The translations under genes were made by a program, and so were the position numbers. Of a stretch of 32,000 nucleotides of DNA, positions 806 through 29,204 are shown piece by piece; the stretch's first letter is position 1; each line of letters opens with the position of its first letter. A model generated the notes under the pieces. The model was given only the letters and a program-made list of their open reading frames with translations, was not told where the DNA came from and searched no databases. This DNA comes from Acaryochloris thomasi RCC1774 (GTDB lineage Bacteria; Cyanobacteriota; Cyanobacteriia; Thermosynechococcales; Thermosynechococcaceae), in assembly GCF_003231495.1 (NCBI RefSeq), contig NZ_PQWO01000007.1:60001-92000 (forward strand), in the 5' to 3' direction.

Positions 806-879
806 CGGGATGTAGCGCAGTTTGGTAGCGCACTTCGTTCGGGACGAAGGGGCCGGAGGTTCAAATCCTCTCATCCCGA
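806..879 (+). tRNA. trnP: tRNA-Pro, anticodon CGG, no encoded CCA
   Basis: Hand-folded cloverleaf. Acceptor CGGGATG/CATCCCG. D-stem GCGC/GCGC. Anticodon stem CTTCG/CGAAG with loop TTCGGGA (CGG at 840-842). T-arm GGAGG-TTCAAAT-CCTCT. Discriminator A at 879, followed by TTG. Confidence 0.93.
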
Positions 880-1581: not shown

Positions 1582-4500
1582 GTGCGCACCATTTCTATCC
1601 CTGAGCAGGGTCAGCTAGTCGATGTTCGTCAGAGTCGCTTTGTTGTTACAGATATAAAGAAGATGCAACTGCCTGCACTTCTTGCGACGTCTGGCCCACA
1701 GGCATCTCAACATTTAATTACACTGTCTTCGGTTGAGGATGATGCGCTGGGTCAAGAGCTTCAGGTGATTTGGGAGCTGGAGCCTGGGGCTCGTGTGTAT
1801 GAGAAAGCTGAGCTACCAGAGCCGACGGGGTTTGATCGGCCTGAGTGGTTGGACGCATTTTTGGATGCGGTGAGGTGGGGAGCGGCTTCGGTGGCGGATG
1901 TACGAAATGTGCAGTCACCGTTTCGCAGTGGAATAGATATTGAGGATTATCAGCTTGATCCTGTGGTGCGGGCGGTGCAGATGCCTCGGGTGAATTTACT
2001 CATTGCGGATGATGTGGGCTTAGGCAAGACAATTGAAGCGGGGTTAGTGGCCCAAGAGCTGATGCTTCGGCAGCGGGCCAGGCGGATTTTGATTGTTTGT
2101 CCGTCGTCTTTGCAGGTGCAGTGGCAAGAGCAGATGCAAAGTAAGTTTGGGCTCGATTTTCGCATCGTAAATAGTGAGCTGATGAAGGGATTGCGTCGGC
2201 GCAGGGGAATTCACGTGAATCCTTGGGGGCATTTCCCGAGGCTGATTACGTCGGTTGATTTTATAAAGCGAGATCGCCCTCTACGTCTGTTTCGCGAAAT
2301 TCTCCCGGCTGAGGGCGAATCGCTGTATCCCCGACGGTTTGATTTGATGATTGTGGATGAGGCTCATAACGTTGCCCCTTCGGGCAGCGGTAAGTACGCT
2401 ATTGATTCGCAGCGGACGGCGGCAATTCGACTGCTAGAGCCGCATTTTGAACACAAGCTATTTTTGACGGCGACGCCACATAATGGTTATCCCGAGAGCT
2501 TTACGGCGCTGCTAGAGCTGTTGGATGCACAGCGGTTTGCCAGAGGTGTCTCACCGGATCCCAAGCAGCTACAAACCGTGATGATCAGACGGCTGAAGCA
2601 GGAACTGCCGCCGGATGATTTTGGTAAACCCCGTTTTCCTGAACGGACGCTGGAGGCGATCGCAGTCAACTACACGACAGAAGAACGCCAAGCCCACCAG
2701 TGGCTAAAGGTTTATACGGAATTACGGCGGCAGGGCGCAAAGGATAATCTGACGGAGCTGTATGCAACTGAGTTTGTGCTAAAGCTGTTGAAGAAGCGGT
2801 TGTTTTCGTCACCGGAGGCGTTTCGGACGACGCTGTTGCAGCATCAGAAATCTTTGCGAGGAGAGAACTCTGAGAAAAAACGCGTGGCTAAGCCCTCCGC
2901 TGAGATTCTTCGCCGTCAGCTCGAACAGGTGGACGAGGCGTTTGCGGATGATGCTGTGTATGAAGAGGCGACGGATGATGCGATCGCAACTTCCACCCGC
3001 TTATTTCATGCAGTTACCGTTGCTGAACAACAACTGCTGAATCAAATGCAAGATTGGGCAGATCAGGCATCACGGCTGCCTGATGCAAAGGCTCAAGAGC
3101 TGCTGGACTGGATTGCGACCGTTTTACGCCCCGAAGGGAAGTGGGGCACAGAGCGGGTGATTATCTTTACAGAATATCGGGCAACCCAGAAATGGCTTTT
3201 TGATCTGTTGGCGAGCGAGGGCTTAGCCAGCGAGGAGAAACTGATGACCCTGTATGGCGGCATGGACTCCAAAGATCGAGAAAAAGTGAAGGCGGCATTT
3301 CAGGCAAACCCGGCGATTTCACCGGTGCGGATTTTGCTGGCGACGGACGCGGCCAGTGAAGGGCTTGATTTGCAGAATCACTGTTCGCGACTGATTCATT
3401 ATGAAATTCCGTGGAATCCGAATCGGATGGAGCAGCGTAATGGTCGGATCGACCGGCACGGGCAGCGAGCCTCGGCGGTGCAGATTTATCACTTTGTAGG
3501 GAGGGGGTTTGAGCAGGTGGCCCTACAGGCGACTCCGGGCAGCAAGCCGGGAGAACTAGAGGGCGATCTGGAGTTTTTGATGCGGGCCGCGCTCAAGGTG
3601 GATACCATCCGTGAGGATTTGGGCAAGGTGGGGCCGGTAATTGCAAGTCAGGTAGAAGAGGCGATGCTGGGGCGGCGGGGTGCTTTGGACACGGCGATAG
3701 CGGAGCAGGAGGCGCAGCCGCTCAGACGACTGATGAAGTTTGAACGGTCGGTACGCGATCGTATTGAACAGCTCAAAGAACAGCTAGGTGAAACGCGTCG
3801 AGACCTACGGCTAACGCCAGAAAATATCACAGCCGTGGTGAAAATTGGGCTAGAGCTGGCAGGGCAGCCGGAGCTGTTGCCGACAGAGGTTCCGGGCTTG
3901 GGCGGTGAGGCTTATCAATTGCCTGCTCTGCAGGGAAGCTGGGCGAATTGCTCGGAGGGGTTAGCGCATCCCCACACCGAAGAGATTCGTCCCATTGTGT
4001 TTGACCCAGATTTGGCGCGGGGGCGCGATGGGGTGGTGCTGGTGCACCTGAATCATCGGTTGGTGCAGATGTGTTTACGACTGCTGCGGGCAGAGGTGTG
4101 GTCGCGCCAAGACAGCAGCAAGCTGTACCGGGTGACGGTGCGGCCGGTACCCACTGCAACGCTTGACCATCCGGTGGTGATTGCCTACGGTCGGCTGGTG
4201 GTGCTCGGTGGCGATCAGCAGCGGTTGCATGAGGAGATTATCACGGCGGGCGGTGAGCTAAAGGAAGGACGATTTAGTCGGTTGAATGTGGGGCAGATCA
4301 AGGCGGCGCTGGACGCGGCTCAGCAAATAAGAGGCCGTGAGGCGGTGCCGGAGCGCATTGAAACAACGCTACAGGAGGCTTGGCCGGGACATCAGGAGGC
4401 TTTGTTGAGATCGCTTCAGGTGCGGATGGACGATCGCACCCAAGGTTTGCAGAAAAAGCTAGCCGAACGCTGCGCAAAGGAAGTGGCGGATATGACGGCA

Positions 4501-4752
4501 GTGCTGACTGAACTGCGCCAGCAGATTATCCGTGAGCTAGATGAACCCGAAGTCGAGCAAATGGAGCTGTTTAGCAGTGTAGAAAAGGACCAGCTTGAGC
4601 GAAACTTGAGCAGTTTGCGGCTGCGAATAGAACAGATTCCGCAGGAGATAGAGCAAGAAGCAGACATTATTAAAGCGCGATTTGCCCAGCCCACGCCAAG
4701 GCTGTTTCCGCTGGCGGTAGCCTATTTGGTGCCTCAGAAGTTAATTAAGTGA
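1582..4752 (+). CDS. drmD: DISARM class 1 DrmD, SNF2-family helicase/ATPase
   Basis: 1056-aa ORF with a GTG start. SNF2 motifs are visible: DDVGLGKT (I), LMIVDEAHNV (II), LFLTATPHNG (III), ILLATDAASEGLDLQ (V), QRNGRIDRHGQ (VI). Sits in a locus with drmMI, drmA, drmB and drmC. Confidence 0.85.
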   Translation: MRTISIPEQGQLVDVRQSRFVVTDIKKMQLPALLATSGPQASQHLITLSSVEDDALGQELQVIWELEPGARVYEKAELPEPTGFDRPEWLDAFLDAVRWGAASVADVRNVQSPFRSGIDIEDYQLDPVVRAVQMPRVNLLIADDVGLGKTIEAGLVAQELMLRQRARRILIVCPSSLQVQWQEQMQSKFGLDFRIVNSELMKGLRRRRGIHVNPWGHFPRLITSVDFIKRDRPLRLFREILPAEGESLYPRRFDLMIVDEAHNVAPSGSGKYAIDSQRTAAIRLLEPHFEHKLFLTATPHNGYPESFTALLELLDAQRFARGVSPDPKQLQTVMIRRLKQELPPDDFGKPRFPERTLEAIAVNYTTEERQAHQWLKVYTELRRQGAKDNLTELYATEFVLKLLKKRLFSSPEAFRTTLLQHQKSLRGENSEKKRVAKPSAEILRRQLEQVDEAFADDAVYEEATDDAIATSTRLFHAVTVAEQQLLNQMQDWADQASRLPDAKAQELLDWIATVLRPEGKWGTERVIIFTEYRATQKWLFDLLASEGLASEEKLMTLYGGMDSKDREKVKAAFQANPAISPVRILLATDAASEGLDLQNHCSRLIHYEIPWNPNRMEQRNGRIDRHGQRASAVQIYHFVGRGFEQVALQATPGSKPGELEGDLEFLMRAALKVDTIREDLGKVGPVIASQVEEAMLGRRGALDTAIAEQEAQPLRRLMKFERSVRDRIEQLKEQLGETRRDLRLTPENITAVVKIGLELAGQPELLPTEVPGLGGEAYQLPALQGSWANCSEGLAHPHTEEIRPIVFDPDLARGRDGVVLVHLNHRLVQMCLRLLRAEVWSRQDSSKLYRVTVRPVPTATLDHPVVIAYGRLVVLGGDQQRLHEEIITAGGELKEGRFSRLNVGQIKAALDAAQQIRGREAVPERIETTLQEAWPGHQEALLRSLQVRMDDRTQGLQKKLAERCAKEVADMTAVLTELRQQIIRELDEPEVEQMELFSSVEKDQLERNLSSLRLRIEQIPQEIEQEADIIKARFAQPTPRLFPLAVAYLVPQKLIK

Positions 4753-4818
4753 GTCTCAATGAGGGCTATATAGAGCATTTTTTAATACCTGCTCTCTACT
4801 TTGATTACACCTGTCTAC

Positions 4819-5142
4819 TTACTGATTTTGCTGAAGCATTGATTGAAAGCGAGCAATAGTGTCTGCGCTGAGCTGTGCCTGTAACGGGACAGCTTCACGC
4901 TCCGATAAGATTTTGGTGGCTTCTGCTTCAGAGTATGGCTCTGACGACTGGATCCACTGCTTTAGGTTCGCTTCTTGCTGGTCGATGGCTGACTTGGAAA
5001 GAACCTGTACTGTATAGGATGAGCCAACCTGCCGAGTCAGTGAATAGACAATGTACTGATTGAGAGAAATGCCCTCACTTTCGGCTAACCGTGACAGTTG
5101 TTCATGAAGGGTTTCTGGTAATCGTAGGGTCAATCGACTCAT
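4819..5142 (-). CDS. Ribbon-helix-helix antitoxin (HicB/Arc-CopG-like DNA-binding N-terminus)
   Basis: The N-terminus MSRLTLRLPETLHEQLSRLAESEGISLNQYIVYSL is a typical RHH beta-alpha-alpha. Its ATG overlaps the stop of the upstream PIN ORF (ATGA at 5139-5142). Confidence 0.75.
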   Translation of the reverse strand: MSRLTLRLPETLHEQLSRLAESEGISLNQYIVYSLTRQVGSSYTVQVLSKSAIDQQEANLKQWIQSSEPYSEAEATKILSEREAVPLQAQLSADTIARFQSMLQQNQ

Positions 5143-5552
5143 GACGGGTCTCCTTGCGAAAGTAATACGATAATTAGCTGCTCTGGTGTGATTGCCTTGA
5201 GTCCTAACGACTTCTGCGCGTTTCTAAAATCTCGGATATTGGAGGTAATCAGAGTGGCCCCGGCATTCATCGCACAGTCAATTACCAGGTCGTCGCCAGC
5301 ATCCGGTGAACTGGGTCGCCATGAAAAGTAAAGGGTAGTGAACTGAGCTTTCGCAACGAGTGTTGCTAGCAAGGGTTTTAGCCGCCGCCATCGAACCGCT
5401 AAGAGCTTTCGCGACAGCACATCTTCGTACTCATACACTAGGGCTGTAGAAATATGCACCGGTAAGAAGCCAGCATTCCAAGCATCGATAATATAGCACC
5501 GCCTACAGTGTCGCTAGTCCGTTATGTTCTAATCATCGCCAACATCAAACAC
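5139..5552 (-). pseudogene. PIN-domain toxin (VapC/TIGR00305-like), with a 5' region disrupted by two in-frame TAG stops
   Basis: The intact ORF 5139-5459 (GTG start) encodes only the C-terminal two thirds of a PIN domain (...YEYEDVLSR..., DDLVIDCAMNAGATLITSNIRDF). In the same frame upstream I read VFDVGDD-TAG(5529-5531)-NITD-TAG(5514-5516)-RHCRRCYIIDAWNAGFLP. This resembles the missing N-terminal strand and helix. Confidence 0.55.
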
Positions 5553-5661
5553 CCTAAAAGTTTCCAGTTTTGCGACGCAGAAACTGGAATGATTGAATCA
5601 CTGCCAAAGGTGGAAAATTCGCCTATCCTGTGGGTTGTTTAGCTGTTTTCAAGACTTACCT

Positions 5662-8600
5662 ATGTCTACTGCTCGTCATCACGCTGAATGGTTATCGCTG
5701 GTTGAGGCTTCGGGGCCGTTTGTGAGTATGCCGGTGCTGCTGAAGGCGTTTCCGCAGGGGCTGGATGCCCACGACCCAGAGGTGATGCGGCAGGTGCGGT
5801 TAGCCCACAGCGAATGGCAAGCCAGTCAGCAGGGGACTGCGCCGGATCGGGGCATTCATGGGGCGTGGGTGGCGTTTGTGCTGCAGGAGGTGTTGGGCTT
5901 TCCGGAGAGTGTGCTGCTGAATGGGCAGGCGGTGCCGTCGGCCCTGGCGGTGACGGTGGCGGAGCAGGGGGAGACGCTGCGGCCTGATTGGGGGGTGGTG
6001 CAGGAAAATAATACGCGGCTGCTGGTGCAGGTATATCCGCCGGGGCAGGATTTGAATAAGGCCGTCAAAGGATCGCGGTGGGCAGCGAGTGCGGCGACGC
6101 GGATGATGGAGCTGCTGCACGGTACGGATGTGCGGCTGGGTCTGGTGACCAATGGGGAGCACTGGCTGCTGGTGAATGCACCGAAGGGAGAAGCGACGGG
6201 CTATATCTCTTGGTACGCGACGCTGTGGCAGGAGGAGAAGCTGACGCTGCGGGCGTTTCGGTCTTTGCTGGGGGTGGAGCGATTTTTTGGGGTTGACGAA
6301 TCGGAGACGATTGAGGCGCTGTTAGCTGAGAGCATCAACTCTCAGCAGGAGGTGACCGACCAGCTCGGCTTTCAGGTGCGCTCTGCGGTGGAAGTGCTGG
6401 TGCAGTCGATTGACCGGGCCGATCAAGATCGGAATCGGGCGCTGCTGGCTGGGTTGCCGGAGACGACGCTCTATGAGGCGGCGCTAACGGTGATGATGCG
6501 GCTGGTGTTTTTGTTTTCGGCGGAGGAGCGGGGGCTGCTGCTCTTGGGCGATCCGGTGTATGACCAGTTTTATGCGGTGAGTACGCTGCGAGAGATGCTG
6601 CGGGAGCAGGCAGATCAGAGCGGGGAGGAGATTTTAGAGCGTAGGTATGATGCATGGTGTCGGCTGCTGGCGATTTTTAGAGCGGTGTATGGCGGCATTG
6701 GGCATGAGGCGCTGCGGCTGCCTGCCTATGGTGGGACGCTGTTTGACCCGGACCGGTTTGCGTTTTTAGAGGGGCGGGCGGCGGGCAGCCGCTGGCAGCG
6801 GGTCGAGGCGAGGCCGATTGAGATCAACAATAGAACGGTGCTGCACTTGCTAGAGGCGCTGCAGTTGCTAGAGGTGCAGATGCCGGGGGGCGGGGGCAAG
6901 GTGTCTCGTAAAATCTCTTTCCGGGCATTGGATATTGAGCAGATTGGGCACGTGTATGAGGGGTTGCTAGACCATACGGCGGTGCGGGCAACAGAGCCGA
7001 TTTTAGGATTGGTGGGGACGAAGAATAGGGAGCCGGAGGTGGCGCTGGGGGCCTTCGACGCCGCTCAGACCTCGGGTGAGCTGCTGAAGTTGCTGAAAAA
7101 GGAGACGGGGCGGAGCGAGTCTGCTTTGCAGAAGGGGTTGGGGGCAGCGGCAGGCGGGACGGCTATCTCACAGGAGTGGAGTGCGTATGAGTTGAGTCGG
7201 CTGCGGGTGGCTTGCGGAAATGATGAGGCGCTGTATGCGCGGGTGCTACCGTTTGCGGGGCTGTTGCGGCTGGATACGTTTGGCTACCCGGTGGTGATTG
7301 CGGGGGGGAGCGTGTATGTGACGCAGGGGAGTGACCGGCGCGATACGGGGACGCACTATACGCCGCGTAGTCTGACGGAGGAGATTGTGAAGTATACGCT
7401 GGAGCCGCTGGTGTATGTGGGGGTGGCGGAGGGGAAGCCGAAAGAGAGGTGGAGGCTGCAGAAAGCGTCGGCGCTGCTGAGCCTGAAGGTGTGCGATATG
7501 GCGATGGGGAGCGGGGCGTTTTTGGTAGAGGTATGCCGGTATCTATCAGCGCGGCTGGTGGAGGCTTGGGAAAGCGCAGAGGCGCAAGAGGTAAGAAGGA
7601 CAGGCAGGATGCCTATCTCACAAGAGGGGGTTGGGGAAGAGGGATTGGAGGTTGCTGAAAAGGGGCAAGAAATTAGAGTGTTGCCGGATGGGTCTCTTTC
7701 TGTGGGAGATGCGGCAGAGCGATTGTTGCCTGCTGACCCAGAGGAACGACTGATTATGGCGCGGCGGCTGGTGGTGGATCGGTGCATTTATGGGGTGGAT
7801 AAGAATCCGCTGGCGGTGGAGATGGCGAAGCTGTCGCTGTGGTTAATTACGCTGCAAAAGAATAAGCCGTTTACGTTTTTAGACCATGCGCTTCGGTGTG
7901 GGGATTCGCTGGTGGGGGTGAGTGTAGAGCAGCTCTGCTACTGGAATATGGATACCTATGAGACAATGCCGGAGCTGTTGGCGAGCAGTATTCGGGCGCA
8001 GGTGGAGGAGGTGTCGCAGATGCGGCGGCAGCTAGAGAATATTTCGGTGGAGACGACGGCGGATCAGGCTGAGAAGGAGCGGCGGCTGGGGCTGGCGCAA
8101 ACGCGGGTGAACGGGCTGCTGTTGGGGGCGGATCAGCTTGTGACGAGCTATTTTGTTTCGAGTAAGAAGAGTCGTCAGGATGATGTGCGGCAGATTATGC
8201 TGCGGACGTATCGGGGTGAGGGGGATGTGCCGGAGGCGCTGCGGGGGGTGCTAGAGAAGCATAATGTGCGGCCTTTTCATTGGGAGCTGGAGTTTCCGGA
8301 GGTGTTTGCGGAGGGGGGTGGGTTTGATGCGATCGTGGGGAACCCACCGTTTCAGGGTGGGCAGAAGATTACGGGTGCGTTGGGAACTGTCTATAGAGAC
8401 TTTTTAGTGAGACAGATTGCGGCAGGGGTGAGGGGAAGTGCGGATTTGTGTGCGTACTTTTTCTTGCGGGCAGATGAAGAGCTGCGAGTAGATGGCGGGA
8501 TGGGGTTGATTGCAACAAACACAATTGCACAGGGAGATACGCGGGAGGTGGGGCTAGATCAGCTTGCGGCAAAGGGGCGGGCGATACCTCGGGCGGTGCC

Positions 8601-9810
8601 GAGCCGGAAGTGGCCGGGGAGCGCGAATTTGGAGGTGGCTCATATTTGGGTGAAAAAGGGAAAGTGGGCAGGCGGCTTTGAGCTGAATGAGAAGTTAGTG
8701 GAGGGGATTACGCCGTTCTTGACGGTTCCGGGGCAGGCGGTGGGCAATCCTGAGCGGTTGGCGGCGAATCAGGAGAAGTCTTTTCAGGGTTCAATCGTTT
8801 TAGGCATGGGTTTTGTTTTAGAGCCAGAAGAGGCTGAGGCGTTGATGGAGAAAGATGCTCGCAACGCGGATGTGTTGTTTCCTTATTTGAATGGACAAGA
8901 CTTGAACTCACACCCGGATCAGTCGCCGAGTCGTTGGGTGATTAATTTCTTTGATTGGCCTTTGGATGCTGAGCATGATGATCTGGAAAAACCGAAGGGG
9001 CCACCCTATGCGGTGGACTATCCTGATTGTTTGGCGATTGTGCGGGAGAAGGTGAAGCCTGAGCGGGATAAGAATAAGCGGAAAGTTCGCCGCGAGAAAT
9101 GGTGGCAATTTGCAGAAAGAGCGGCAGGGCTTTATGGGGCGGTTGAGGGTTGCGATCGCGTTTTGTTAAGAGCGAGAATTTCCAATATCCATTCAGTCAC
9201 ATGGGTGGCTGATAACTGGGTCTATAACGAGAAAGTTGTTGTCTTTCCCAATTCTTCTCTAGCCATTCTTCAATCCAGCATTCATGAGGTATGGGCTAGA
9301 AGATACAGCTCGAGCTTGAGAAAAGATATGCAATATACGCCGTCTGATTGTTTTGAAACCTTCCCCTTTCCCACCCAATACAGCAACCTAGAAGACATTG
9401 GCGAACGCTACTACACCCACCGCCAATCCATCATGCGCACAACCAACCTCGGCCTCACCAAAACCTACAACCGCTTCCACACCCCCGAAGACACCGCCCC
9501 CGACATCACCCAACTCCGCACCCTCCACACCGAAATGGACTCCGCCGTCGCTGCCGCCTACGGCTGGCAAGACTTCGCTCTAAATCACGACTTCCATGAA
9601 ACCAAACAAGGGCTGCGATTTACCATCAGCGAAGCCGCCCGCCGCGAAGTCCTCGATCGCCTGCTGGCGCTGAACCATGAGCGCTATGCAGAAGAAGTAA
9701 AGCTGGGACTGCACGATAAGAAAAAGAAAAAAAGAAAGAGGGCGAAGGCGAAAAAGGCAGCACCTCGCAAAGAAGCACCGCCAGACGATCAGATGAAGCT
9801 GTTCTTGTAG
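5662..9810 (+). CDS. drmMI: DISARM class 1 DrmMI, large N6-adenine DNA methyltransferase (PglX/type IIG-like)
   Basis: SAM motif VCDMAMGSGAFLV. Catalytic motif IVGNPPFQGG (NPPF, N6-adenine class). Helix YGVDKNPLAVEMAKLSLWL. ATG at 5662 (MSTARHHAEWL...) is preferred over the TTG at 5593 given in the ORF track. Lys/Arg-rich C-terminal tail. Confidence 0.85.
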   Translation: MSTARHHAEWLSLVEASGPFVSMPVLLKAFPQGLDAHDPEVMRQVRLAHSEWQASQQGTAPDRGIHGAWVAFVLQEVLGFPESVLLNGQAVPSALAVTVAEQGETLRPDWGVVQENNTRLLVQVYPPGQDLNKAVKGSRWAASAATRMMELLHGTDVRLGLVTNGEHWLLVNAPKGEATGYISWYATLWQEEKLTLRAFRSLLGVERFFGVDESETIEALLAESINSQQEVTDQLGFQVRSAVEVLVQSIDRADQDRNRALLAGLPETTLYEAALTVMMRLVFLFSAEERGLLLLGDPVYDQFYAVSTLREMLREQADQSGEEILERRYDAWCRLLAIFRAVYGGIGHEALRLPAYGGTLFDPDRFAFLEGRAAGSRWQRVEARPIEINNRTVLHLLEALQLLEVQMPGGGGKVSRKISFRALDIEQIGHVYEGLLDHTAVRATEPILGLVGTKNREPEVALGAFDAAQTSGELLKLLKKETGRSESALQKGLGAAAGGTAISQEWSAYELSRLRVACGNDEALYARVLPFAGLLRLDTFGYPVVIAGGSVYVTQGSDRRDTGTHYTPRSLTEEIVKYTLEPLVYVGVAEGKPKERWRLQKASALLSLKVCDMAMGSGAFLVEVCRYLSARLVEAWESAEAQEVRRTGRMPISQEGVGEEGLEVAEKGQEIRVLPDGSLSVGDAAERLLPADPEERLIMARRLVVDRCIYGVDKNPLAVEMAKLSLWLITLQKNKPFTFLDHALRCGDSLVGVSVEQLCYWNMDTYETMPELLASSIRAQVEEVSQMRRQLENISVETTADQAEKERRLGLAQTRVNGLLLGADQLVTSYFVSSKKSRQDDVRQIMLRTYRGEGDVPEALRGVLEKHNVRPFHWELEFPEVFAEGGGFDAIVGNPPFQGGQKITGALGTVYRDFLVRQIAAGVRGSADLCAYFFLRADEELRVDGGMGLIATNTIAQGDTREVGLDQLAAKGRAIPRAVPSRKWPGSANLEVAHIWVKKGKWAGGFELNEKLVEGITPFLTVPGQAVGNPERLAANQEKSFQGSIVLGMGFVLEPEEAEALMEKDARNADVLFPYLNGQDLNSHPDQSPSRWVINFFDWPLDAEHDDLEKPKGPPYAVDYPDCLAIVREKVKPERDKNKRKVRREKWWQFAERAAGLYGAVEGCDRVLLRARISNIHSVTWVADNWVYNEKVVVFPNSSLAILQSSIHEVWARRYSSSLRKDMQYTPSDCFETFPFPTQYSNLEDIGERYYTHRQSIMRTTNLGLTKTYNRFHTPEDTAPDITQLRTLHTEMDSAVAAAYGWQDFALNHDFHETKQGLRFTISEAARREVLDRLLALNHERYAEEVKLGLHDKKKKKRKRAKAKKAAPRKEAPPDDQMKLFL

Positions 9811-9931
9811 AGATTGCTCTAATCAACTCACACACAAGGGGACCGCGAGTGGCTTCTCTGTATAAACAAAAATTTATTTTGCTAGCGGTATCAAATTGGG
9901 GGGCAGGGAGGCGAATGCAGGGAGTGGTAGG

Positions 9932-10279
9932 TCAGAGTTCGATGGTCTGACGCTGCGAATAGATTTCTTTTACCAACAAATCCCGAAGCTCTTCAGCAAT
10001 ATCATTCGGTGGATTACCGGCAAGCGCTCGTCCAATCAAACGCTCTGCCTCTCTAAATGCACCAGATGCGATCGCAAGTGCAGCCGCACTACGATGCAGT
10101 ACCGCGCGAGTCGGCTCAAGGTCAAACTGATCAGCCACCAAATCAGCCGCCGCCCGCTCTTTCTCAAAAGCAGCTCTTGCCAGCTCAACAACGCGGTTTT
10201 TCTCGCCCTGCCGTCTGGCGAGTACCGCCAGATCAACCAGTTCCATCGATTCTTTATGAAGCGTTTCTACGTCCTGCAT
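9932..10279 (-). CDS. Hypothetical all-helical protein, 115 aa, TPR-like feel
   Basis: Its ATG overlaps the end of upstream ORF 10267-10632 by 13 nt. Ala/Glu/Arg/Leu-rich helical sequence (AAALAIASGAFREAERLIGRALAGNPPN). I recognise no family. Confidence 0.55.
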   Translation of the reverse strand: MQDVETLHKESMELVDLAVLARRQGEKNRVVELARAAFEKERAAADLVADQFDLEPTRAVLHRSAAALAIASGAFREAERLIGRALAGNPPNDIAEELRDLLVKEIYSQRQTIEL

Positions 10280-10632
10280 TTTTCAACAACATGCACCCTA
10301 GGCGTACTAAACTCAACCACAGAAACGTAGCCCGGTGCTGCCGTATCCGAAGGGCTAATCTGTCTTAGCTTTATATTAACTCTAGATTGAATAACAGCTT
10401 CAGCACCTCTCCGAATGCCCGAAACCTCTAAGCGAGCCTTCCTCTGAAATCCACCCCCTGCACTATCGATTGACCCAAGCCAAAAGTCAAAGCCAAAGCC
10501 CTTCCCCTTCACCGAACGCTCGATCACAGTGAGGTTCGTCAGGTAAGGCATCACCAACGCTGCAATACCGTAAGCTCCATACTCAGTAGCCACTTCTCGA
10601 TCCGCATTGAACCGCCGCATAATGTCATCCAC
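10267..10632 (-). CDS. Hypothetical protein of 121 aa, with a weak PD-(D/E)xK-like pattern. May be the C-terminal part of a 189-aa gene split by TGA.
   Basis: GTG at 10632-10630 is in frame with, and two codons after, the TGA of ORF 10639-10836. An internal ATG lies at 10620. The pattern EYGAYGIA...GFDFWLG...ARLEVSGIRRG loosely resembles the E...D...ExK nuclease core, with Ser in place of Lys. This is speculative. Confidence 0.5.
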   Translation of the reverse strand: MDDIMRRFNADREVATEYGAYGIAALVMPYLTNLTVIERSVKGKGFGFDFWLGSIDSAGGGFQRKARLEVSGIRRGAEAVIQSRVNIKLRQISPSDTAAPGYVSVVEFSTPRVHVVEKCRT

Positions 10633-10638
10633 CGCATC

Positions 10639-10836
10639 TCATTTCAGCTCAATCTCGCAAGGCTGAATACCTTCAACTTGCAGCACAATCGGCTCTATAT
10701 GCCCCTGTTCATCTAAACAAATAGCAGCCGCCTCAGCACAGGATGCTCCGAAAGTAAGTGACCAGCCAGGACGTTCTGGTTTTGTCTGACACAAATCGTT
10801 CAGGTGAAGTGCGACTACTGACTGACTATCCATCAT
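10639..10836 (-). CDS. Hypothetical 65-aa ORF, possibly the N-terminal part of a gene interrupted by an in-frame TGA
   Basis: ATG start 200 nt from the divergent helicase gene. Ends at TGA 10639-10641, in frame with the next ORF. No family recognised. Confidence 0.4.
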   Translation of the reverse strand: MMDSQSVVALHLNDLCQTKPERPGWSLTFGASCAEAAAICLDEQGHIEPIVLQVEGIQPCEIELK

Positions 10837-10871
10837 TGAATCTATCTTTTACAGTGATTCTGGCCTGACTG

Positions 10872-10894
10872 CTTTGGCATTCTACCTGCCAAAG
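10872..10894. promoter_or_regulatory. Perfect 8-bp inverted repeat CTTTGGCA-N7-TGCCAAAG in a divergent intergenic region, a candidate operator
   Basis: Read directly from the sequence. It lies in the 200-bp gap between minus-strand ORF 10639-10836 and plus-strand gene 11037-13151. A TAAAAT hexamer at 11002-11007 is a possible -10 box for the plus-strand gene. Confidence 0.3.
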
Positions 10895-11036
10895 ACATCC
10901 GCATACAGAGGTGTTGAATGATGTTCCTAAGGTCTCGTTACAATCACGCAACAATCCGCTAATTCTGACCGTAAGCAACGCTGCCTTCTGAGAAATAGCG
11001 CTAAAATGCCAAGGACTTTAGCTATGTAGTCTTTAG

Positions 11037-13151
11037 ATGTCCTTTGAGCTGCTCTACAAGCCCACCTTCACCAACCAGCTCCTCACTATTCCTCAAGATC
11101 GTCTTCGTCAGGTTTTAGAAAAAATTGAACTCCTGCGCGAAAACCCCAAACCCCACGGCAAACTTAAGAAAAAGCTCCACGGCTACAAAGGCAACATTTA
11201 CCGCCTGCGCTCCGGCGATCAGCGCATCATTTACACCTACGGTAACGGCTGGGTTGCTCTCCTTGGGGTAGATGCGCGCAAAGATGTGTACAAAGGCGAT
11301 AAGCTGGTCGCGGGTGAAACCGAGCTAGACACCAGCAGTCTGCCAGACATGCAGGATTTGCTCACGCCAACGCCCGCTCCGCCTACAGCTCAGAGAAAGC
11401 CCACCGTAGAGCAACTTGAAAACTACCTCCCGGTGCAGCTCACGCCAGATTTTCTCAAGCGGCTGCTGGTGCCCGCCCAGTTTTTTGACGCTCTCACCGC
11501 CTGCAAAACCCTCGACCATCTCACCAGCGCTGCCATTCCTGAACCCTTGCGTGAGCGCGTTTTCGATGCCGTCACCACGCCCAACTTCGACCAGGTTCTC
11601 AGCCAGCCCGACCTAATTGCAGGCGCTGATGAACTGCTCAAGTTCAAAGAAGGTAACCTGCTCGGTTTTTTACTGAAGCTCAATCCTGAACAAGAAAAAT
11701 ATGTGACCTGGGCCATTAAGTCCAAAGGCCCTACTCTGCTGAAGGGTGGCCCCGGCACTGGCAAAAGCACCGTCGCCCTCTATCGCGCCCGCGAAGTCCT
11801 CGATCGACTTAAGGCCGAAGGCGTTGCTCGGCCCAAAATCTTGTTCACCACCTATACCAATGCCTTGGTGAAGTTTTCGCAGCAGCTTCTGACCCAGCTT
11901 CTTGGTACAGATGCTAAATTCGTCGATGTCAAAACCGCCGACAAAATCGCCTATGCCCTGGTCGTGAAGGCCACCGGCAAGCCTGCGATCGCCAGCAGTA
12001 CCCAGCAAAAACGACTGCTGAAGTCAGCTCTGGTAGATGCGATCTCATCTCTCCCTGGCAATCGCCTCCAGCAGCAGGCCCAGCGGCTCATTCTTCAGCG
12101 GCTCCATCCCGACTACCTGCTTGAAGAACTCAACAGCGTCATCACGGCCAGAAACCTACAATCCCTGGCCGATTATGAATCCACCTCTCGCAGCGGACGT
12201 CGCGTTCGTCTCAACAAAACCCAGCGGCAAGCCGTCTGGCATTTGCATCAGCACTTTACTCAGCAGCTCAGCGAACAGTCTATAGAAACCTGGCCCCAGT
12301 TGCGCAACCGAGCGCTGAAAATCTTAGCGGCTAGCGATACGCCGCTGGTATACGACGCCGTTATCATCGACGAAGCTCAAGATTTAGAGCCGAATGCGCT
12401 GCGGCTGCTTGCCCAGCTCTGCCGCCAGCCCAATCGCCTCTTCATCACCGCCGATGCCAACCAGTCCATTTACGGTAGTGGATTCCGCTGGGCCGATGTG
12501 AGTGAATCACTGAAGTTTGTGGGGCGTACCGGCATTCTGCGCGTCAACCACCGCACCACCCAAGAAATTGATGCCGCCGCCCATAATTATCTGTACGACG
12601 GCAGCTTAGATAATGAAACTCTGGAGCCACAGTACATTCACAGCGGGCCACCGCCCGCCATTCGTGCAGTGCGCGATCGTGAACAAGAAAGCTACCTGCT
12701 GGCCCAGTTTTGCCGCGCTGCCGCCCGCGAATTTCGCTTGGGCATGGGCGCTTGTGCCATTCTCACCCCCAGCGATAAAGCAGGTAAGGCCCTCGCCGAT
12801 CAGCTCTGCTACCTCGGTGTAGAAAGCCACTTTATGGCCAGCAAAGATCTTGATCTCAACCGCAAAGGGGTGAAGGTGTTGCCACTCAAAGCGGCTAAAG
12901 GATTGGAGTTTCCGATAGTTGCGATCGCAGGCTTCTTTGACGGTGTCTATCCCTACATTCCCAAAGGCACCTCAGACCTCGAAATTCAAGAAATTTTGGC
13001 CCGCGAACGCCGCACCCTCTTTGTGGCCATGACCCGCGCCATGCGAGCGTTACTGGTTGTGGTTCCCGCCGCTCGGCCTCAGCGCAAGCCCAGTCCGTTA
13101 CTACAGTCCTTTGACTCTGACTTTTGGAATTTGGGAAAGACCGACGCATGA
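11037..13151 (+). CDS. Fusion protein: N-terminal RelE/ParE-family toxin-like domain plus SF1 UvrD/Rep-like helicase
   Basis: Residues 1 to about 88 (MSFELLYKPTFTNQL...LRENPKPHGKLKKKLHGYKGNIYRLRSGDQRIIYTYGNGWVALLGVDARKDVYK) match the RelE/ParE toxin pattern. Helicase motifs follow: LLKGGPGTGKST (I), VIIDEAQDL (II), FITADANQSIYG (III), LRVNHRTTQEI (IV), KAAKGLEFPIVAIAG (V), LFVAMTRAMRAL (VI). TGA 13149-13151 overlaps the drmA ATG. Confidence 0.85.
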   Translation: MSFELLYKPTFTNQLLTIPQDRLRQVLEKIELLRENPKPHGKLKKKLHGYKGNIYRLRSGDQRIIYTYGNGWVALLGVDARKDVYKGDKLVAGETELDTSSLPDMQDLLTPTPAPPTAQRKPTVEQLENYLPVQLTPDFLKRLLVPAQFFDALTACKTLDHLTSAAIPEPLRERVFDAVTTPNFDQVLSQPDLIAGADELLKFKEGNLLGFLLKLNPEQEKYVTWAIKSKGPTLLKGGPGTGKSTVALYRAREVLDRLKAEGVARPKILFTTYTNALVKFSQQLLTQLLGTDAKFVDVKTADKIAYALVVKATGKPAIASSTQQKRLLKSALVDAISSLPGNRLQQQAQRLILQRLHPDYLLEELNSVITARNLQSLADYESTSRSGRRVRLNKTQRQAVWHLHQHFTQQLSEQSIETWPQLRNRALKILAASDTPLVYDAVIIDEAQDLEPNALRLLAQLCRQPNRLFITADANQSIYGSGFRWADVSESLKFVGRTGILRVNHRTTQEIDAAAHNYLYDGSLDNETLEPQYIHSGPPPAIRAVRDREQESYLLAQFCRAAAREFRLGMGACAILTPSDKAGKALADQLCYLGVESHFMASKDLDLNRKGVKVLPLKAAKGLEFPIVAIAGFFDGVYPYIPKGTSDLEIQEILARERRTLFVAMTRAMRALLVVVPAARPQRKPSPLLQSFDSDFWNLGKTDA

Positions 13152-16100
13152 ACATCATCCAGCTCCCGGCCCAGCTCCCTGGCGTTCTCAACCTCAGCGC
13201 CGTTAATCAGCAGCTTAGAACCCACGCCGCTCAGCTAGACTGGAGCGCCGTTGTTAACCCTGAAGGGCCGCAGTTGGCTCAGTTGCTCGCGGGGTTAGAT
13301 CTCTCTGACCATGCGGAAAGCTTGGGCTTAGATACAGTTCTGGCAGATGAGCTGGGCGATGCGATCATGGCCTATTTCGACCAGGCCGATCCGCCTCCTG
13401 AACCCCCTAAGAAGAAAGCTACCGCGCCAGGTAGTGCGCTCACGCCAGAAGTCTGGCAGCAGCAGGAGCTATTCGAAGCAGAGCCGCTACAGCTACCCCC
13501 AATTAGAACCGCCTCTCAAGCAGACAAAACAATTGACCTAGATTTCTACGAAGAACAGCCTGCAGAAGCGGTTCCCGATCGCATTTTGCAGGCTTTCACG
13601 CCCTATCAGATTCGGCAGGAGCTTGAAGCTAGGGTCGTCAAAGATCTCTTGGGACCAGCCCAAGGCCCTCAAGAAGAACTTGATGTCGATCGGGTGAGCG
13701 ACCGCTACTTAGTCGGGCTATTGGCCCCTCAAAAGCGAGACCGTGAGGCTCCAATTGACGCTCTTTTAGAACTACAGGATCCACTAGAAGTTGCCGGAAT
13801 AGAAACCATCGAAGACGGCAGCAGCGAACAGACCCGCACCGCCACCAAGACTATCTTTCCCTCTTCTTTGGGGATGACCTTCTGCGTGAGTCACGAAGCT
13901 GAAGCGATTTACGTTATCGCCGGATGGGGCCAATATGAGCGCACTAAAGGCGAATATCAAGAAACCGATAAAGGCAACCCTAAACTAATCTGGAAGCGCT
14001 ACCCCATTCGCAAACAGTCCCCATCCATTCCCCTGCGCGCAGGCACTCTCACGGACTGGCGTATTCATGAAGACTTCGCCGTCTTTGTAAAAGGCAAAAT
14101 TCGCCGCCAGCAAGGCTGTTGGATGATCTCGTTGTTTTTGGTCAATGATCGCACTGAACCCGAAAAGCACGCCGATAGTGCTTGGCTTTTTCAACCTGAG
14201 CTTTCGGTGAAATCGGCAACAGAACAAACAGATATCTTTCTCAAAAAGCCCCATCGCCGCTCTGCTGACCACAAGCTAGATCCGGTTTACTATGGCGAAG
14301 AGCAAATGATGAATATGCTCTATCGTCAGCAGGTCGAGTTTGCCGTTGGTCACGGTGTCGGCGTTCATGCAAGCGTTTTACCAAACGATCCGACTCGGGC
14401 AACTCAGCTCGCAACTACGGTGGTTCCCGTTTCTGAAGTGCCAAAGTCTACGCCGCCCACAGCCGCAGAAGAGCCTGCCTTAAAGGGCTTAGTGCTAGAG
14501 ATGAAAGTGCTTGCGGGGCTAATGCCCGACGCTTTGCCCGATCAGCTAGCGGCTTTGCCGATGGCCTATGAGCAATGGATACAGGGGCAGCGTGATCGCT
14601 TAACGGACCCTGATGAGGGATTAGAAGACTATCAAAGCAGTGCGCATGAGGCGCTGGAAAAGTGCGATCGCGCCCTGGCTCGTATCCGGGCAGGCATCGA
14701 AACCCTACGCACTAACCCCCAAGCCGCTCGCGCCTTTCTGTTTATGAACCGGGCCATGTATCTGCAGCGAGTGCGCTCTATTTATTCCAGCAAAAAAAGG
14801 CGTGGGGAGGCGATCAACCTAGATGCCATAGATTCGCCGAAGTGGTACCCCTTTCAGCTCGCCTTTATTCTGTTGAACTTGCCGAGCACCACCGATCTGA
14901 CGCATCGCGATCGCTGCCATCCGACTGAAGCTATGTCAGACCTGCTTTGGTTCCCGACAGGCGGTGGTAAAACCGAAGCTTATCTTGGCCTTGCAGCCTA
15001 CACTATTGGTCTTCGCAGGCTTCAGGGCACCATCGCCGGACGTTCAGGGGCCGCAGGAGTTGCCGTGCTCATGCGCTACACCCTCAGGCTGCTCACCTTA
15101 CAGCAGTTCCAGCGAGCCACCGTCCTCATCTGTGCCTGTGAGGTGATCCGCCGTGAAGACGTAGAAACCTGGGGTGAAGAGCCTTTTCGCATTGGCCTGT
15201 GGGTAGGGATGAAAACTACTCCAAACCGAACGCAAGACAGCGAGGCTTACGTCGAAGCGCTCAAGGCTCGCAGCCTGCCACCCAGTGGTGGCTCCCCCCA
15301 TCAGCTCACGAGCTGCCCCTGGTGCGGAACCGAGATTGATGAAGGCAGACACATCAGCGTGAGTTCCTTCAAAAAAGGTAAAGCCCGCACCCTCGTTCAC
15401 TGTGGCGATATCCTTGGGCACTGTCCCTTCAGCCGCAAGCAAGCTAAAGAAGAAGGTCTGCCGGTCGTAGTCGTCGATGAAGAGATTTACCGGCGGCTGC
15501 CGATCCTGCTGATTGCCACCGTTGATAAGTTTGCTCAAATGCCCTGGAAAGGTGAAACGCAGATGCTCTTTGGACGGGTGAATGGGTATTGCGATCGCCA
15601 CGGTTATCGCTCTCCTGAAATTGAAGATAGCGACAGCCATCCAGCTAAATATGGCTTGCCCAAAGCCATGACTAAATCAATCAACAATCTTCGCCCGCCC
15701 GATCTGATTATTCAAGATGAATTGCACTTGATTAGTGGCCCCTTGGGCACCCTCGTTGGCCTATACGAAACCGCCATCGACCAGCTCGCTTCCTGGGAAA
15801 TAGACGGCAAAACAGTCCGGCCCAAGGTAATTGCCTCCACTGCAACGATTCGGCAGGCACAGTCTCAGATGCACGATCTCTTTTTGCGAAAAGTAGACGT
15901 GTTCCCACCTCAGGGGTTAGACATTAGCGACAACTTTTTCTCTCGCCAGCGCTCCCCCGGTGAAGACTACCCCGGCAGAAGGTATTTAGGGATTTGTGCC
16001 ACAGGACGCCGCCTAAAAGCCGCCACTATCCGCGTCTATACCGCGATACTTGCCGCCTCCCAAGATATGTTTGAGCGAGCCGGTGACAAGGCCGATCCGT

Positions 16101-17053
16101 GGATGACTCTGGTGGGCTACTTCAATTCCATGCGAGAACTAGGCGGCACCCGCCGACTCATAGACGATGACATTCAGCAGCGCCTCAACAAAATGGATCG
16201 GCGTGGACTCTCTAACCGCCGTCAGCTGATGGTCGAAGAACTCACCTCCCGAAAATCTTCAACGGATATTCCTAAGGTGCTCGACTGGATGGAAACCCCT
16301 TTCGTCGGTGAGCGAAAGCGCAGTAAAGATCGCCCCACCCCTCTTGATGTGTTGCTCGCCACTAACATGATTTCAGTCGGAGTAGACGTGGGCAGGCTGG
16401 GCATCATGGCCGTCACTGGTCAGCCCAAAACCACCGCCGAATACATTCAATCTACGTCCCGAGTTGGGCGTCAGCACCCCGGTCTTGTTGTCACTATCTT
16501 CAACTGGGCTAGACCCAGAGATCTTTCTCACTATGAGCGATTTGAACACTATCATTCCACGTTCTATCAGCATGTAGAAAGTCTTTCTCTCACGCCTTTC
16601 TCCCCGGGGGCAACCGATCGCGGCTTAGCGGCGCTGCTTGTGTCTCTCGTCCGGCTGAATAATGAAGAATACAATCTCAATAAGTGGGCTAGCCGCATCC
16701 GCCGAGATGATCCCTATATTCAAACCGCCATTCAACAAATTGTAGAGAGGGCTTGGCACGTGAGCGGCGATCCTGCTGTGCGAGATTTTGTGCAGCGCGA
16801 ACTCGACCATCGCCTAGACTACTGGCTCGCCCAAGCTCAAGATACTGAGGGCGGCAAAGAACTCGGCTATAAAACAGCCAAAGATGACGTTACCCTTGGC
16901 TTGCTGGAGCAACCTGGCAGTGAGGGATTGCAGCCGTTTACGTGCCTTAATTCCTTGCGCAATGTAGAACCTGCCATTGGCCTCATTCTCAATCCACAGG
17001 TTCCTGACGACGATACCAGCAGCCCCCCTCAGCCCATGCCCGTAACACCTTAA
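13148..17053 (+). CDS. drmA: DISARM DrmA, SF2 DEAD/DEAH-type helicase with a large N-terminal region
   Basis: Walker A FPTGGGKTEAYLG. DExH box IIQDELHLISGPLG. Motif VI YIQSTSRVGRQHPG. Immediately followed by a DUF1998 gene. ATG at 13148 (ATGA overlap with the upstream stop) is preferred over the TTG at 13124. Confidence 0.88.
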   Translation: MNIIQLPAQLPGVLNLSAVNQQLRTHAAQLDWSAVVNPEGPQLAQLLAGLDLSDHAESLGLDTVLADELGDAIMAYFDQADPPPEPPKKKATAPGSALTPEVWQQQELFEAEPLQLPPIRTASQADKTIDLDFYEEQPAEAVPDRILQAFTPYQIRQELEARVVKDLLGPAQGPQEELDVDRVSDRYLVGLLAPQKRDREAPIDALLELQDPLEVAGIETIEDGSSEQTRTATKTIFPSSLGMTFCVSHEAEAIYVIAGWGQYERTKGEYQETDKGNPKLIWKRYPIRKQSPSIPLRAGTLTDWRIHEDFAVFVKGKIRRQQGCWMISLFLVNDRTEPEKHADSAWLFQPELSVKSATEQTDIFLKKPHRRSADHKLDPVYYGEEQMMNMLYRQQVEFAVGHGVGVHASVLPNDPTRATQLATTVVPVSEVPKSTPPTAAEEPALKGLVLEMKVLAGLMPDALPDQLAALPMAYEQWIQGQRDRLTDPDEGLEDYQSSAHEALEKCDRALARIRAGIETLRTNPQAARAFLFMNRAMYLQRVRSIYSSKKRRGEAINLDAIDSPKWYPFQLAFILLNLPSTTDLTHRDRCHPTEAMSDLLWFPTGGGKTEAYLGLAAYTIGLRRLQGTIAGRSGAAGVAVLMRYTLRLLTLQQFQRATVLICACEVIRREDVETWGEEPFRIGLWVGMKTTPNRTQDSEAYVEALKARSLPPSGGSPHQLTSCPWCGTEIDEGRHISVSSFKKGKARTLVHCGDILGHCPFSRKQAKEEGLPVVVVDEEIYRRLPILLIATVDKFAQMPWKGETQMLFGRVNGYCDRHGYRSPEIEDSDSHPAKYGLPKAMTKSINNLRPPDLIIQDELHLISGPLGTLVGLYETAIDQLASWEIDGKTVRPKVIASTATIRQAQSQMHDLFLRKVDVFPPQGLDISDNFFSRQRSPGEDYPGRRYLGICATGRRLKAATIRVYTAILAASQDMFERAGDKADPWMTLVGYFNSMRELGGTRRLIDDDIQQRLNKMDRRGLSNRRQLMVEELTSRKSSTDIPKVLDWMETPFVGERKRSKDRPTPLDVLLATNMISVGVDVGRLGIMAVTGQPKTTAEYIQSTSRVGRQHPGLVVTIFNWARPRDLSHYERFEHYHSTFYQHVESLSLTPFSPGATDRGLAALLVSLVRLNNEEYNLNKWASRIRRDDPYIQTAIQQIVERAWHVSGDPAVRDFVQRELDHRLDYWLAQAQDTEGGKELGYKTAKDDVTLGLLEQPGSEGLQPFTCLNSLRNVEPAIGLILNPQVPDDDTSSPPQPMPVTP

Positions 17054-17063
17054 ATATTGAGCG

Positions 17064-18929: not shown

Positions 18930-19743
18930 TCCTTTGCGACCCCTCTCCCCTCGGCTGCTCGCCCACATTCATCGAGTGGCTCAGCAGTTACCACAGTCGG
19001 TGCTCTCAACCGTGGCTAATTTTCTTGCTGACGTTCCTCAGGCAACTGATAGCAAAACGGCTTGGCTGCCTTTGCTTCAGCAGCTCCCTAAGCCTGTTTG
19101 GCGGCGAGCTTTCACGGATTTATTAGCCGTTTGGTCTGAGGACAATCCTGTATTACAAGGCGAATCTCTTGCGACAGCTTTATGCTCTGCGCATTACAGT
19201 ATTGAGCGCGCTGAAGAAGCGCTTAATATAGAAATTGTTTGGACAGGGCCAGAGGTCTCAAGAATTCCCGTCCGCCGCACAGAGCAGGTTTTGCTACAGC
19301 TCATTCGCGTCGCTTCAGAGGAGCTGACTTTGGCAAGCTTTGCGCTTTACAAGGTTCCTACACTCACCCAGGCCCTCATTGCTGCTTTAGATCGAGGCGT
19401 TCAAGTGCGGATTATTGCAGAAACGACTGCAGGCGACACCGTCGTACCCTTTGGCGTTAAAGCAGGGCTCGGTCAAGAAGTTGCTATGCGAGCGGAAGTC
19501 TACGAATGGGATAAAGCTAAAAGGCCTAAAGATAAAGCCGGTCGGCAGGGCTCTTTGCATATGAAAGTTGCGATCTCAGATCGTCAACGTCTTTTTATCA
19601 CGAGTGCTAATCTCACGGGCTATGCTATGTTGCTCAATATGGAAATGGGACTTTTAGTAAATGGCAAAGCCTTATCTTGTCAGGTCTCGGAGCATTTCGA
19701 TCAACTTATTCAGCAAGAAATCATTGCCTTGGTCGATCATTAA
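18907..19743 (+). CDS. drmC: DISARM DrmC, phospholipase D (Nuc-like) family nuclease
   Basis: Single HxK(x)4D(x)6(T/S)xN motif: GSLHMKVAISDRQRLFITSANLTGYA. The start is uncertain: TTG 18907 overlaps the drmB end, and TTG 18934 or GTG 18976 are alternatives. Confidence 0.82.
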   Translation: MPFSSRSSPLRPLSPRLLAHIHRVAQQLPQSVLSTVANFLADVPQATDSKTAWLPLLQQLPKPVWRRAFTDLLAVWSEDNPVLQGESLATALCSAHYSIERAEEALNIEIVWTGPEVSRIPVRRTEQVLLQLIRVASEELTLASFALYKVPTLTQALIAALDRGVQVRIIAETTAGDTVVPFGVKAGLGQEVAMRAEVYEWDKAKRPKDKAGRQGSLHMKVAISDRQRLFITSANLTGYAMLLNMEMGLLVNGKALSCQVSEHFDQLIQQEIIALVDH

Positions 19744-29123: not shown

Positions 29124-29204
29124 TGGGCGAGGAGAGACTCGAACTCTCACGACCGAAGCCGCTACATTTTGAGTGTAGTGCGTCTACCATTCCGCCACTC
29201 GCCC
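29124..29204 (-). tRNA. trnL: tRNA-Leu, anticodon CAA, class II long variable arm, no encoded CCA
   Basis: Hand-folded. Acceptor GGGCGAG/CTCGCCC. Anticodon stem CTACA/TGTAG with loop CTCAAAA. 13-nt variable arm CGGCTTCGGTCGT. T-arm GAGAG-TTCGAGT-CTCTC. Discriminator A. Confidence 0.93.

Follow-up and report, generated by a model that had tools for sequence, protein, structure and literature searches.

What are three small, unnamed open reading frames (ORFs) doing between the genes of a defence island? In the window considered here, which is the whole 32,000-nucleotide stretch of Acaryochloris thomasi RCC1774 (contig NZ_PQWO01000007.1, positions 60,001 to 92,000), ORFs A, B and C tile positions 9932-10836 between a methylase gene and a helicase gene of a DISARM-type island. 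The deposited annotation treats them as three separate hypothetical proteins. Alignment with their homologues indicates instead that A and B are one 189-amino acid gene, AB, interrupted by a stop codon, and that C encodes its partner; the annotation is therefore to be corrected from three "hypothetical proteins" to one interrupted gene plus its partner. The explanation that we favour, with somewhat better than even confidence, is that AB and C form a mobile conflict module of a nuclease and its regulator, which rides in the island as a passenger and has recently been inactivated, or split, in this strain. The elements of the locus are the following.

10639-10836, minus strand: ORF A, 65 amino acids, the N-terminal domain of AB with near-invariant C40 and H46; predicted by AlphaFold2 to form a strand, a helix (residues 27-43) and a beta-hairpin (49-65); deposited as the 64-amino acid hypothetical protein WP_199464384.1.
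10267-10632, minus strand: ORF B, 121 amino acids when begun at a GTG; it makes up the C-terminal domain of AB, in which E85, D117, E137-V-S139, R152, K156 and Q159 are conserved; deposited as C1752_02748, which starts at the ATG at 10620 and has 117 amino acids.
9932-10279, minus strand: ORF C, 115 amino acids, a five-helix TPR-like partner.
10267-10836, minus strand: the whole AB gene, homologue of a conserved two-domain protein of 186-192 amino acids, with one in-frame stop.
10639-10641, minus strand: the in-frame TGA, codon 66, which falls in the linker that joins the two predicted domains.
10267-10279, minus strand: the 13-nt overlap of B and C (AB stop and C start), with the ATG of C inside ...GAAAAATGCAGGACGTAG
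10837-11036: the 200-bp intergenic region between AB and the divergent RelE-like-UvrD helicase gene, which starts at 11037.

A preliminary description of this DNA had already given the layout of three minus-strand ORFs, with the TGA, the overlap and the 200-bp gap, and all of it was confirmed. The "divergent trio" of which it spoke is real as ORFs, but as genes it is a duo, with 66-84% identity across cyanobacterial orders.

Are A and B one gene? They share a single frame and are separated by the TGA at 10639-10641 plus two codons. The fused A+B translation has 326 homologues at 66-84% identity, nearly all of them full length and almost all 186-192 amino acids long. At the alignment column of the TGA, 75 of 87 related loci have TGG (Trp), seven have CGN (Arg) and five encode other residues; the two nearest relatives of the window's AB have CGG. 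Full-length homologues, the alignment and this codon column, which the preliminary description had proposed to check for a sense codon, thus support its suggestion of one 189-amino acid gene broken by a stop. A single-base change from TGG or CGA yields TGA. At the 81 columns that are at least 95% conserved, the window's AB shows no deviation (the median for intact relatives is one), and in comparison with its nearest relative the nonsynonymous rate (dN) is 0.10 and the synonymous rate (dS) 0.89, a dN/dS of about 0.11. Because all 81 highly conserved residues are kept, the stop must be recent, an assembly error or tolerated. As deposited, with its stop, AB in the window counts as either a pseudogene or a split gene. 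Reading of the TGA as selenocysteine, or through genome-wide recoding, was considered and discarded: relatives have Trp or Arg at this position, not Cys, and ORF C itself ends in TGA.

The two genes had been described as orphans. They belong instead to a very large and strongly conserved family. A profile search with AB of 1.84 billion cluster representatives returned 1,578 clusters, defined at 50% identity, at E <=0.001 and 1,041 at E <=1e-10, spread over many phyla; among the 150 best-scoring proteins listed, most have 170-200 amino acids. Across the family, AB has a dN/dS of 0.115 (A part 0.16, B part 0.09) and C one of 0.107; these substitution patterns place both genes under purifying selection. 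The preliminary description had asked whether homologues conserve the reading frames under such selection; they keep the frames, with a dN/dS of about 0.11. Chance ORFs are ruled out by the homologues and by dN/dS.

None of this conservation comes with a name. A, B, the fused A+B and C matched no family in Pfam, NCBIfam, PADLOC or PHROGs, in agreement with the earlier remark that they fit no known family, and 88 diverse AB relatives gave nothing meaningful in Pfam and PADLOC. Profile searches of PDB sequences with the AB and partner alignments returned only chance or designed-TPR matches. The source names of the homologues all read "hypothetical protein", and literature searches turned up no description of the AB-C pair.

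How tightly is C bound to AB in genomes? ORF C has 571 homologues, nearly all of 113-123 amino acids. Scanning 185,579 species genomes, one per species, yielded 198 pattern-confirmed loci. Eighty of these loci were fetched; together with two loci fetched earlier they make up the sample of 82 in which pairing was assessed. AB and C are adjacent in about 78 of the 82, C following AB almost wherever the contig permits, and the adjacency extends to Hydrogenedentota, Alphaproteobacteria, Nitrospirales, Syntrophorhabdus and Heliomicrobium. Most cyanobacterial loci share the geometry of the 13-nt overlap, a conservation consistent with the translational coupling that had been read from it. The two genes also occur as a natural fusion, a single ORF of 292 amino acids on a metagenomic contig (P0301, L083 1051-1929). 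At four columns with a conservation of 95% or more, the window's C has a residue unusual for the family (A11S, E71A, C72S and L75F). None of the 119 controls shows more such changes, and three of the four sit close together in one helix pair.

The partner also has a long form. AB is followed by a gene for a protein of 372-382 amino acids in Pseudanabaena and in the majority of the non-cyanobacterial loci that were examined (L063, L073, L075-L077, L079, L080 and L084). The first ~110 residues of this protein are homologous to C (53% identity, hhalign probability 99.8%); the remaining ~265 are conserved and had no match in PDB or, for the eight long partners scanned, in Pfam. At least 1,681 proteins, one per cluster at 90% identity, were retrieved with the long partner as query, from Planctomycetota, Hydrogenedentota, Acidobacteriota and others. 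The extra C-terminal domain is absent within 10 kb from the window and from other cyanobacterial loci. By alignment, the window's C is the minimal form of a partner that has ~380 amino acids in other phyla. In the last ~70 residues of the long partner, conservation follows a beta-beta-beta-alpha-beta-beta pattern, which on our own reading of the alignment might be an OB fold; Pfam gave no CSD or TBP match for the long partner. One partner, from an Anabaena plasmid, has a weak HTH_35 match (E = 0.0013) at residues 5-48, inside its C-like TPR domain (1-104).

What might AB do? Its fold was taken from an AlphaFold2 model of an intact relative, P0004, which is 75% identical (predicted local distance difference test score, pLDDT, 85; predicted template-modelling score, pTM, 0.86). 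In the model, residues 8-65 make up an N-terminal alpha/beta part, and residues 70-189 a C-terminal part of the order alpha-beta-beta-beta-alpha-beta(-beta), whose core elements are a helix at 80-100, strands at 102-109, 116-122 and 134-141, a helix at 146-159 and a strand at 169-175. This predicted alpha-beta-beta-beta-alpha-beta order is the core topology of the PD-(D/E)xK superfamily, which includes Cas4/RecB-type, CinB and EndA domains. Among 88 diverse relatives, A88, D117, L136, E137 and G140 are invariant, and C40, H46, D79, E85, G115, W119, L120, R135, S139, R152, K156, Q159, E175, F176 and P179 are near-invariant. By model and alignment, E85, D117 and E137 occupy the positions of the PD-(D/E)xK acidic residues: E85 lies on the first helix, the invariant D117 opens strand 2 and the invariant E137 is part of strand 3. 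In our reading, AB is a probable PD-(D/E)xK-type nuclease. An E...GFDFW...LEVSG pattern had earlier been taken as a hint of such a core; its motifs do fall on the predicted PD-(D/E)xK topology, but the fold matches are weak.

Those matches came from Foldseek. For AB, the best-ranked PDB entries are of restriction-endonuclease fold, namely the tRNA-splicing endonuclease EndA (E = 0.017) and CinB; Rai1, AdnAB and the Cas4-family ACE1 appear at lower ranks among many unrelated folds, and the nucleases named in the viral library are mostly Cas4-like and PDDEXK exonucleases. Searches with AB and C against PDB and viral models gave nothing at E <=0.001. The AlphaFold2 model of C has five helices (pLDDT 89.6) and is TPR-like, which bears out the earlier view that this product is all-helical. 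Its Pfam TPR_14 match (E = 0.031, 15.4 bits) lies under the 23.5-bit cut-off, and Foldseek pairs it with TPR proteins at high probability (0.9-1.0) but with weak E-values (~0.03; template-modelling score, TM, 0.35-0.56).

The module moves horizontally and is self-contained. Its 400 nearest neighbour genes fall into 281 clusters, neighbours being shared only in a syntenic Microcoleus group, and their Pfam families run from tRNA synthetases and DnaB through PIN, HTH_3 and Uma2 to transposases. Some genomes hold several copies (three in Calothrix PCC 7103, two in Dulcicalothrix desertica PCC 7102) and four plasmids carry the module; no phage carries it. The window's AB is closest to a Phormidesmis copy (83%), copies from Acaryochloridaceae being 68-69% identical. 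Upstream of AB, 25 of 78 loci (0.2 expected) have the motif (G/A)TA(A/G)(A/G)AT(G/T)CTG(A/G)A. Its end usually falls 24-29 nt ahead of the ATG, as though the module took a promoter along with it. The window has only a degenerate copy (10844-10856) that does not match the strict pattern, and a promoter and terminator scan performed no better than on shuffled sequence. A 19-nt inverted repeat, 84% complementary, brackets the module and the intergenic region (9794-9812 and 11052-11070); one arm falls in the last part of the methylase gene, the other in the first part of the helicase gene, and by a rough estimate it is roughly at chance level.

Decay is common as well. AB is disrupted and C intact in at least ten loci (the window, L048/L050, L057, L059, L061, L064, L070, L078, L082 and plasmid1 of Leptolyngbya boryana NIES-2135). 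In the plasmid copy (L089 6986-7552), a frame-shifted stretch and a stop have degraded AB in mid-gene, next to an intact, annotated C gene of 115 amino acids. L013 and L086 have a broken C only, and L071 has both genes broken.

How would such a module work? In the explanation we favour, AB would be the effector, its C-terminal domain a metal-dependent PD-(D/E)xK nuclease, as topology and invariant acidic residues suggest. The TPR-like C would be made by translational coupling and would bind and regulate AB. The extra ~265-residue domain of the long partner may sense or bind nucleic acid, most cyanobacteria having retained the TPR adaptor only. In RCC1774, the effector gene would have been cut by a recent nonsense mutation of one base at codon 66, in the inter-domain linker, leaving a module that is probably inactive or in two pieces. 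Its role would be defence-like or addiction-like.

Several observations weigh against this account. The position of the Lys in (D/E)xK is taken in AB by the near-invariant Ser139 (E-V-S), for which K133, R135 or K156 might substitute, and, unlike PD-(D/E)xK enzymes, AB has an extra N-terminal domain with a conserved Cys and His. No significant fold or sequence tie connects AB to a characterised nuclease (Foldseek E >=0.017, TM <=0.38) or to any member of the superfamily, Pfam gave no clan match, and an hhalign comparison of the AB profile with the Uma2 proteins from the loci was negative, with a thin alignment. Many AB-C loci lie among housekeeping genes and not in defence islands. The cyanobacterial cross-order identity of about 70% is unusually strong for a selfish module. 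The excess of AB over C disruptions is not significant given gene length (p = 0.08-0.15), C has no DNA-binding domain (no helix-turn-helix, HTH, or ribbon-helix-helix, RHH, match), and the TGA itself may be an assembly error.

Does the module belong to the island in which it sits? The surrounding genes, assigned by Pfam, are these.

1582-4752: SNF2 helicase.
5593-9810: Eco57I/MmeI-type methylase (PglX-like, DrmMI/ArmB-like).
11037-13151, plus strand: UvrD helicase with a weak ParE/RelE-like N-terminus (ParE_toxin E = 0.009).
13124-17053: 1,309-amino acid helicase, DrmA-like.
17064-18929: DUF1998/MZB protein, DrmB-like.
18907-19743: PLD nuclease.

The split helicase/DUF1998 pair together with the PLD nuclease is a DISARM signature. 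ArmD of ARMADA Type II is a RelE-like domain fused to a GajB-like UvrD helicase (PMC12458937), and the RelE-UvrD gene of the window (11037-13151) matches this published description as an ArmD-like component; 11037-19743 may be a DISARM/ARMADA hybrid arrangement. Because the gene fits ArmD and overlaps the DrmA-like gene, it belongs with the island and not with the AB-C pair. A functional unit of the pair with this helicase was rejected, as no other locus has a helicase homologue near the pair, and we find no support for the suggestion that the shared 200-bp region links them functionally.

Composition separates the pair from the island too. Third codon positions in the SNF2 and methylase genes are rich in G (G3 0.45-0.52, with a GC skew of up to +0.47) and those in the helicase, DrmA-like and DrmB-like genes in C (C3 0.33-0.40), giving an island of three blocks with the G/T-ending AB-C pair at the junction of the G3-rich and C3-rich ones. 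In A, B and C themselves, G3 is 0.29-0.34, T3 0.32-0.36 and C3 0.11-0.14, in line with the earlier remark that their codon usage resembles neither flank.

Could the pair still be a functional DISARM/ARMADA accessory, for example a regulator or an extra effector tied to the PglX-like methylase drmMI? We searched the 82 related loci by tblastn with the island proteins of the window. A drmMI homologue was found in five: directly beside the pair, about 170 bp away and divergent from AB, in L015, L044, L068 and L009, and as a fragment about 3.4 kb from the pair in L001. The same search gave no DrmA-, DrmB- or PLD-like matches. In the window, the methylase lies 122 bp from C and is convergent with it; as this arrangement is unlike that of the other drmMI-linked loci, at least two independent juxtapositions must have occurred, which speaks for an association, as does L044, where the pair is placed between SNF2 and methylase genes. 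Against it, the pair keeps no constant position or orientation with respect to the methylase, the composition marks the pair as foreign to both flanking blocks, and three of the loci are not independent. In L015, L044 and L068, C is directly followed by a gene for a Uma2-family (PF05685) putative endonuclease (5140-5748, 2956-3558 and 4771-5373, respectively); because these proteins are 94-97% identical and the upstream DNA is near-identical, the three represent one island lineage, and such identity across three genera suggests that the island segment was recently transferred as a whole. In the set of about 90 loci, a drmMI-like methylase adjoins the pair in only five, and about 94% of the related loci lack any DISARM gene within 10 kb. 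An accessory role thus seems quite improbable to us, and the idea of a DISARM-embedded module, for which co-occurrence had been proposed as a check, is not borne out by drmMI in only five of 82 loci and by neighbours that are heterogeneous. The pair shares with DISARM class 1 and ARMADA Type II its place between a PglX-like methylase and an ArmD-like RelE-UvrD helicase, but it is no described component of either, differs in composition and strand, and occurs in few such contexts, as sampled from the loci of the pair. It is a passenger in the island, not a component of DISARM. Slighter still is the chance that AB is a housekeeping enzyme of nucleic-acid processing, such as an EndA-like RNA endonuclease with a TPR cofactor. 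Its top Foldseek matches are indeed tRNA-splicing endonucleases and span both domains, purifying selection is strong and many loci lie among housekeeping genes; but a housekeeping role sits poorly with a distribution as patchy as 198 loci in 185,579 species genomes, with multi-copy genomes, plasmid copies and frequent pseudogenes, and with similarity that does not track taxonomy. Moreover, the invariant acidic pair points to metal-dependent chemistry, which EndA is not known to use.

What, then, does the stop mean? That the module still works is a minority view to which we give perhaps one chance in a handful: either the split would be tolerated, the two domains being produced as separate chains through termination and restart at GTG 10632 or ATG 10620, or leaky reading of UGA by tRNA-Trp would yield the full-length protein. 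The break coincides exactly with the predicted inter-domain linker, a GTG and an ATG follow in frame 6 and 18 nt downstream, AB carries no further damage (for which a recent mutation accounts equally well), and the four unusual changes in the window's C could be compensatory. A parallel comes from an unrelated, non-cyanobacterial lineage (L093, 3001-3561), in which an independent CAA-to-TAA change has created a stop at the codon preceding the one that reads TGA in the window. The change yields ORFs of 66 and 112 amino acids, the remainder of AB and the 382-amino acid partner are intact, sister strains hold an intact 186-amino acid gene (compare L084 8001-8561), and in both L093 and the window an in-frame ATG follows shortly downstream of the stop at one common alignment column. 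This stop and the changes in the window's C keep the idea of a tolerated split at the domain boundary in play, but two adjacent-codon stops among about five nonsense events are within chance, in other copies decay comes from frameshifts and from stops at different places in AB, and the model is one compact unit (pTM 0.86) whose separate pieces may not assemble. Nor was a Shine-Dalgarno-like element noticed shortly before the restart codons, although no scan for ribosome-binding sites was made. Alternatively, the TGA could be a sequencing or assembly error and the gene intact, with TGG or CGA at this codon. The genome is a draft, and the codon is one base off the consensus of a family to which the rest of the gene conforms perfectly; substitution errors are rare in consensus assemblies, however, and real disruptions of AB are common in other genomes, complete ones included. 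We regard an error as unlikely, and a little less likely than a working split. A mobile conflict module, recently inactivated or split, continues to fit these observations best.

How does the pair compare with known conflict systems? It resembles toxin-first type II toxin-antitoxin operons (higBA, mqsRA) in its small, overlapping, co-oriented genes, in being autonomous, patchy and sometimes multi-copy or plasmid-borne, and in its frequent decay, which hits the larger, putatively toxic gene more often (a bias that is not significant). Unlike the antitoxins of such operons, C lacks an HTH or RHH DNA-binding domain and so is not a classical autoregulated type II antitoxin; AB also has, in most phyla, a partner of ~380 amino acids with an extra domain, and AB-C fusions exist. 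The TOTE conflict systems (TPR, OB, TBP, Effector), to which TALON is related (Aravind et al. 2022, as cited in PMC12458937), offer a second comparison, as far as that citing account describes them. Like these, AB-C would pair a TPR-containing protein with a putative nuclease-type effector; unlike them, the 115-amino acid C of the window has no OB/TBP region and the long partner matches no CSD or TBP model. A bolder proposal, which we think rather improbable, is that AB and its partner are a widespread immune or conflict system of two genes that has so far gone without a name and is perhaps related to TOTE as a compact form. It would combine a PD-(D/E)xK-like effector with a TPR adaptor bearing a nucleic-acid-sensing domain, minimised to TPR only in cyanobacteria, and the repeated linker stops (window and L093) would represent a tolerated or regulated split of the effector instead of plain decay.

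The copy in the window, probably a recently inactivated passenger, is by itself of little interest. It leads, however, to a large family of protein pairs that lacks a Pfam, NCBIfam, PADLOC or PHROGs model or a solved structure and that behaves like toxin-antitoxin and defence modules. If AB is a nuclease held by a TPR adaptor, the pair would enlarge the known range of bacterial conflict systems by a new, compact one and provide a simple case in which to study the control of nucleases by TPR adaptors.

Some minor features of the window remain. An 840-bp gap of lower GC content (0.47-0.50) without a long ORF (4753-5592) separates the SNF2 and methylase genes. The TTG start of the methylase at 5593 is probably too early, because its homologues align from residue 23 or 24. 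An Rfam search of the window found two tRNA genes only, neither of them inside 9932-10836; they lie at 806-879 (plus strand) and 29124-29204 (minus strand), and the first, just upstream of the defence island, could be an integration site.

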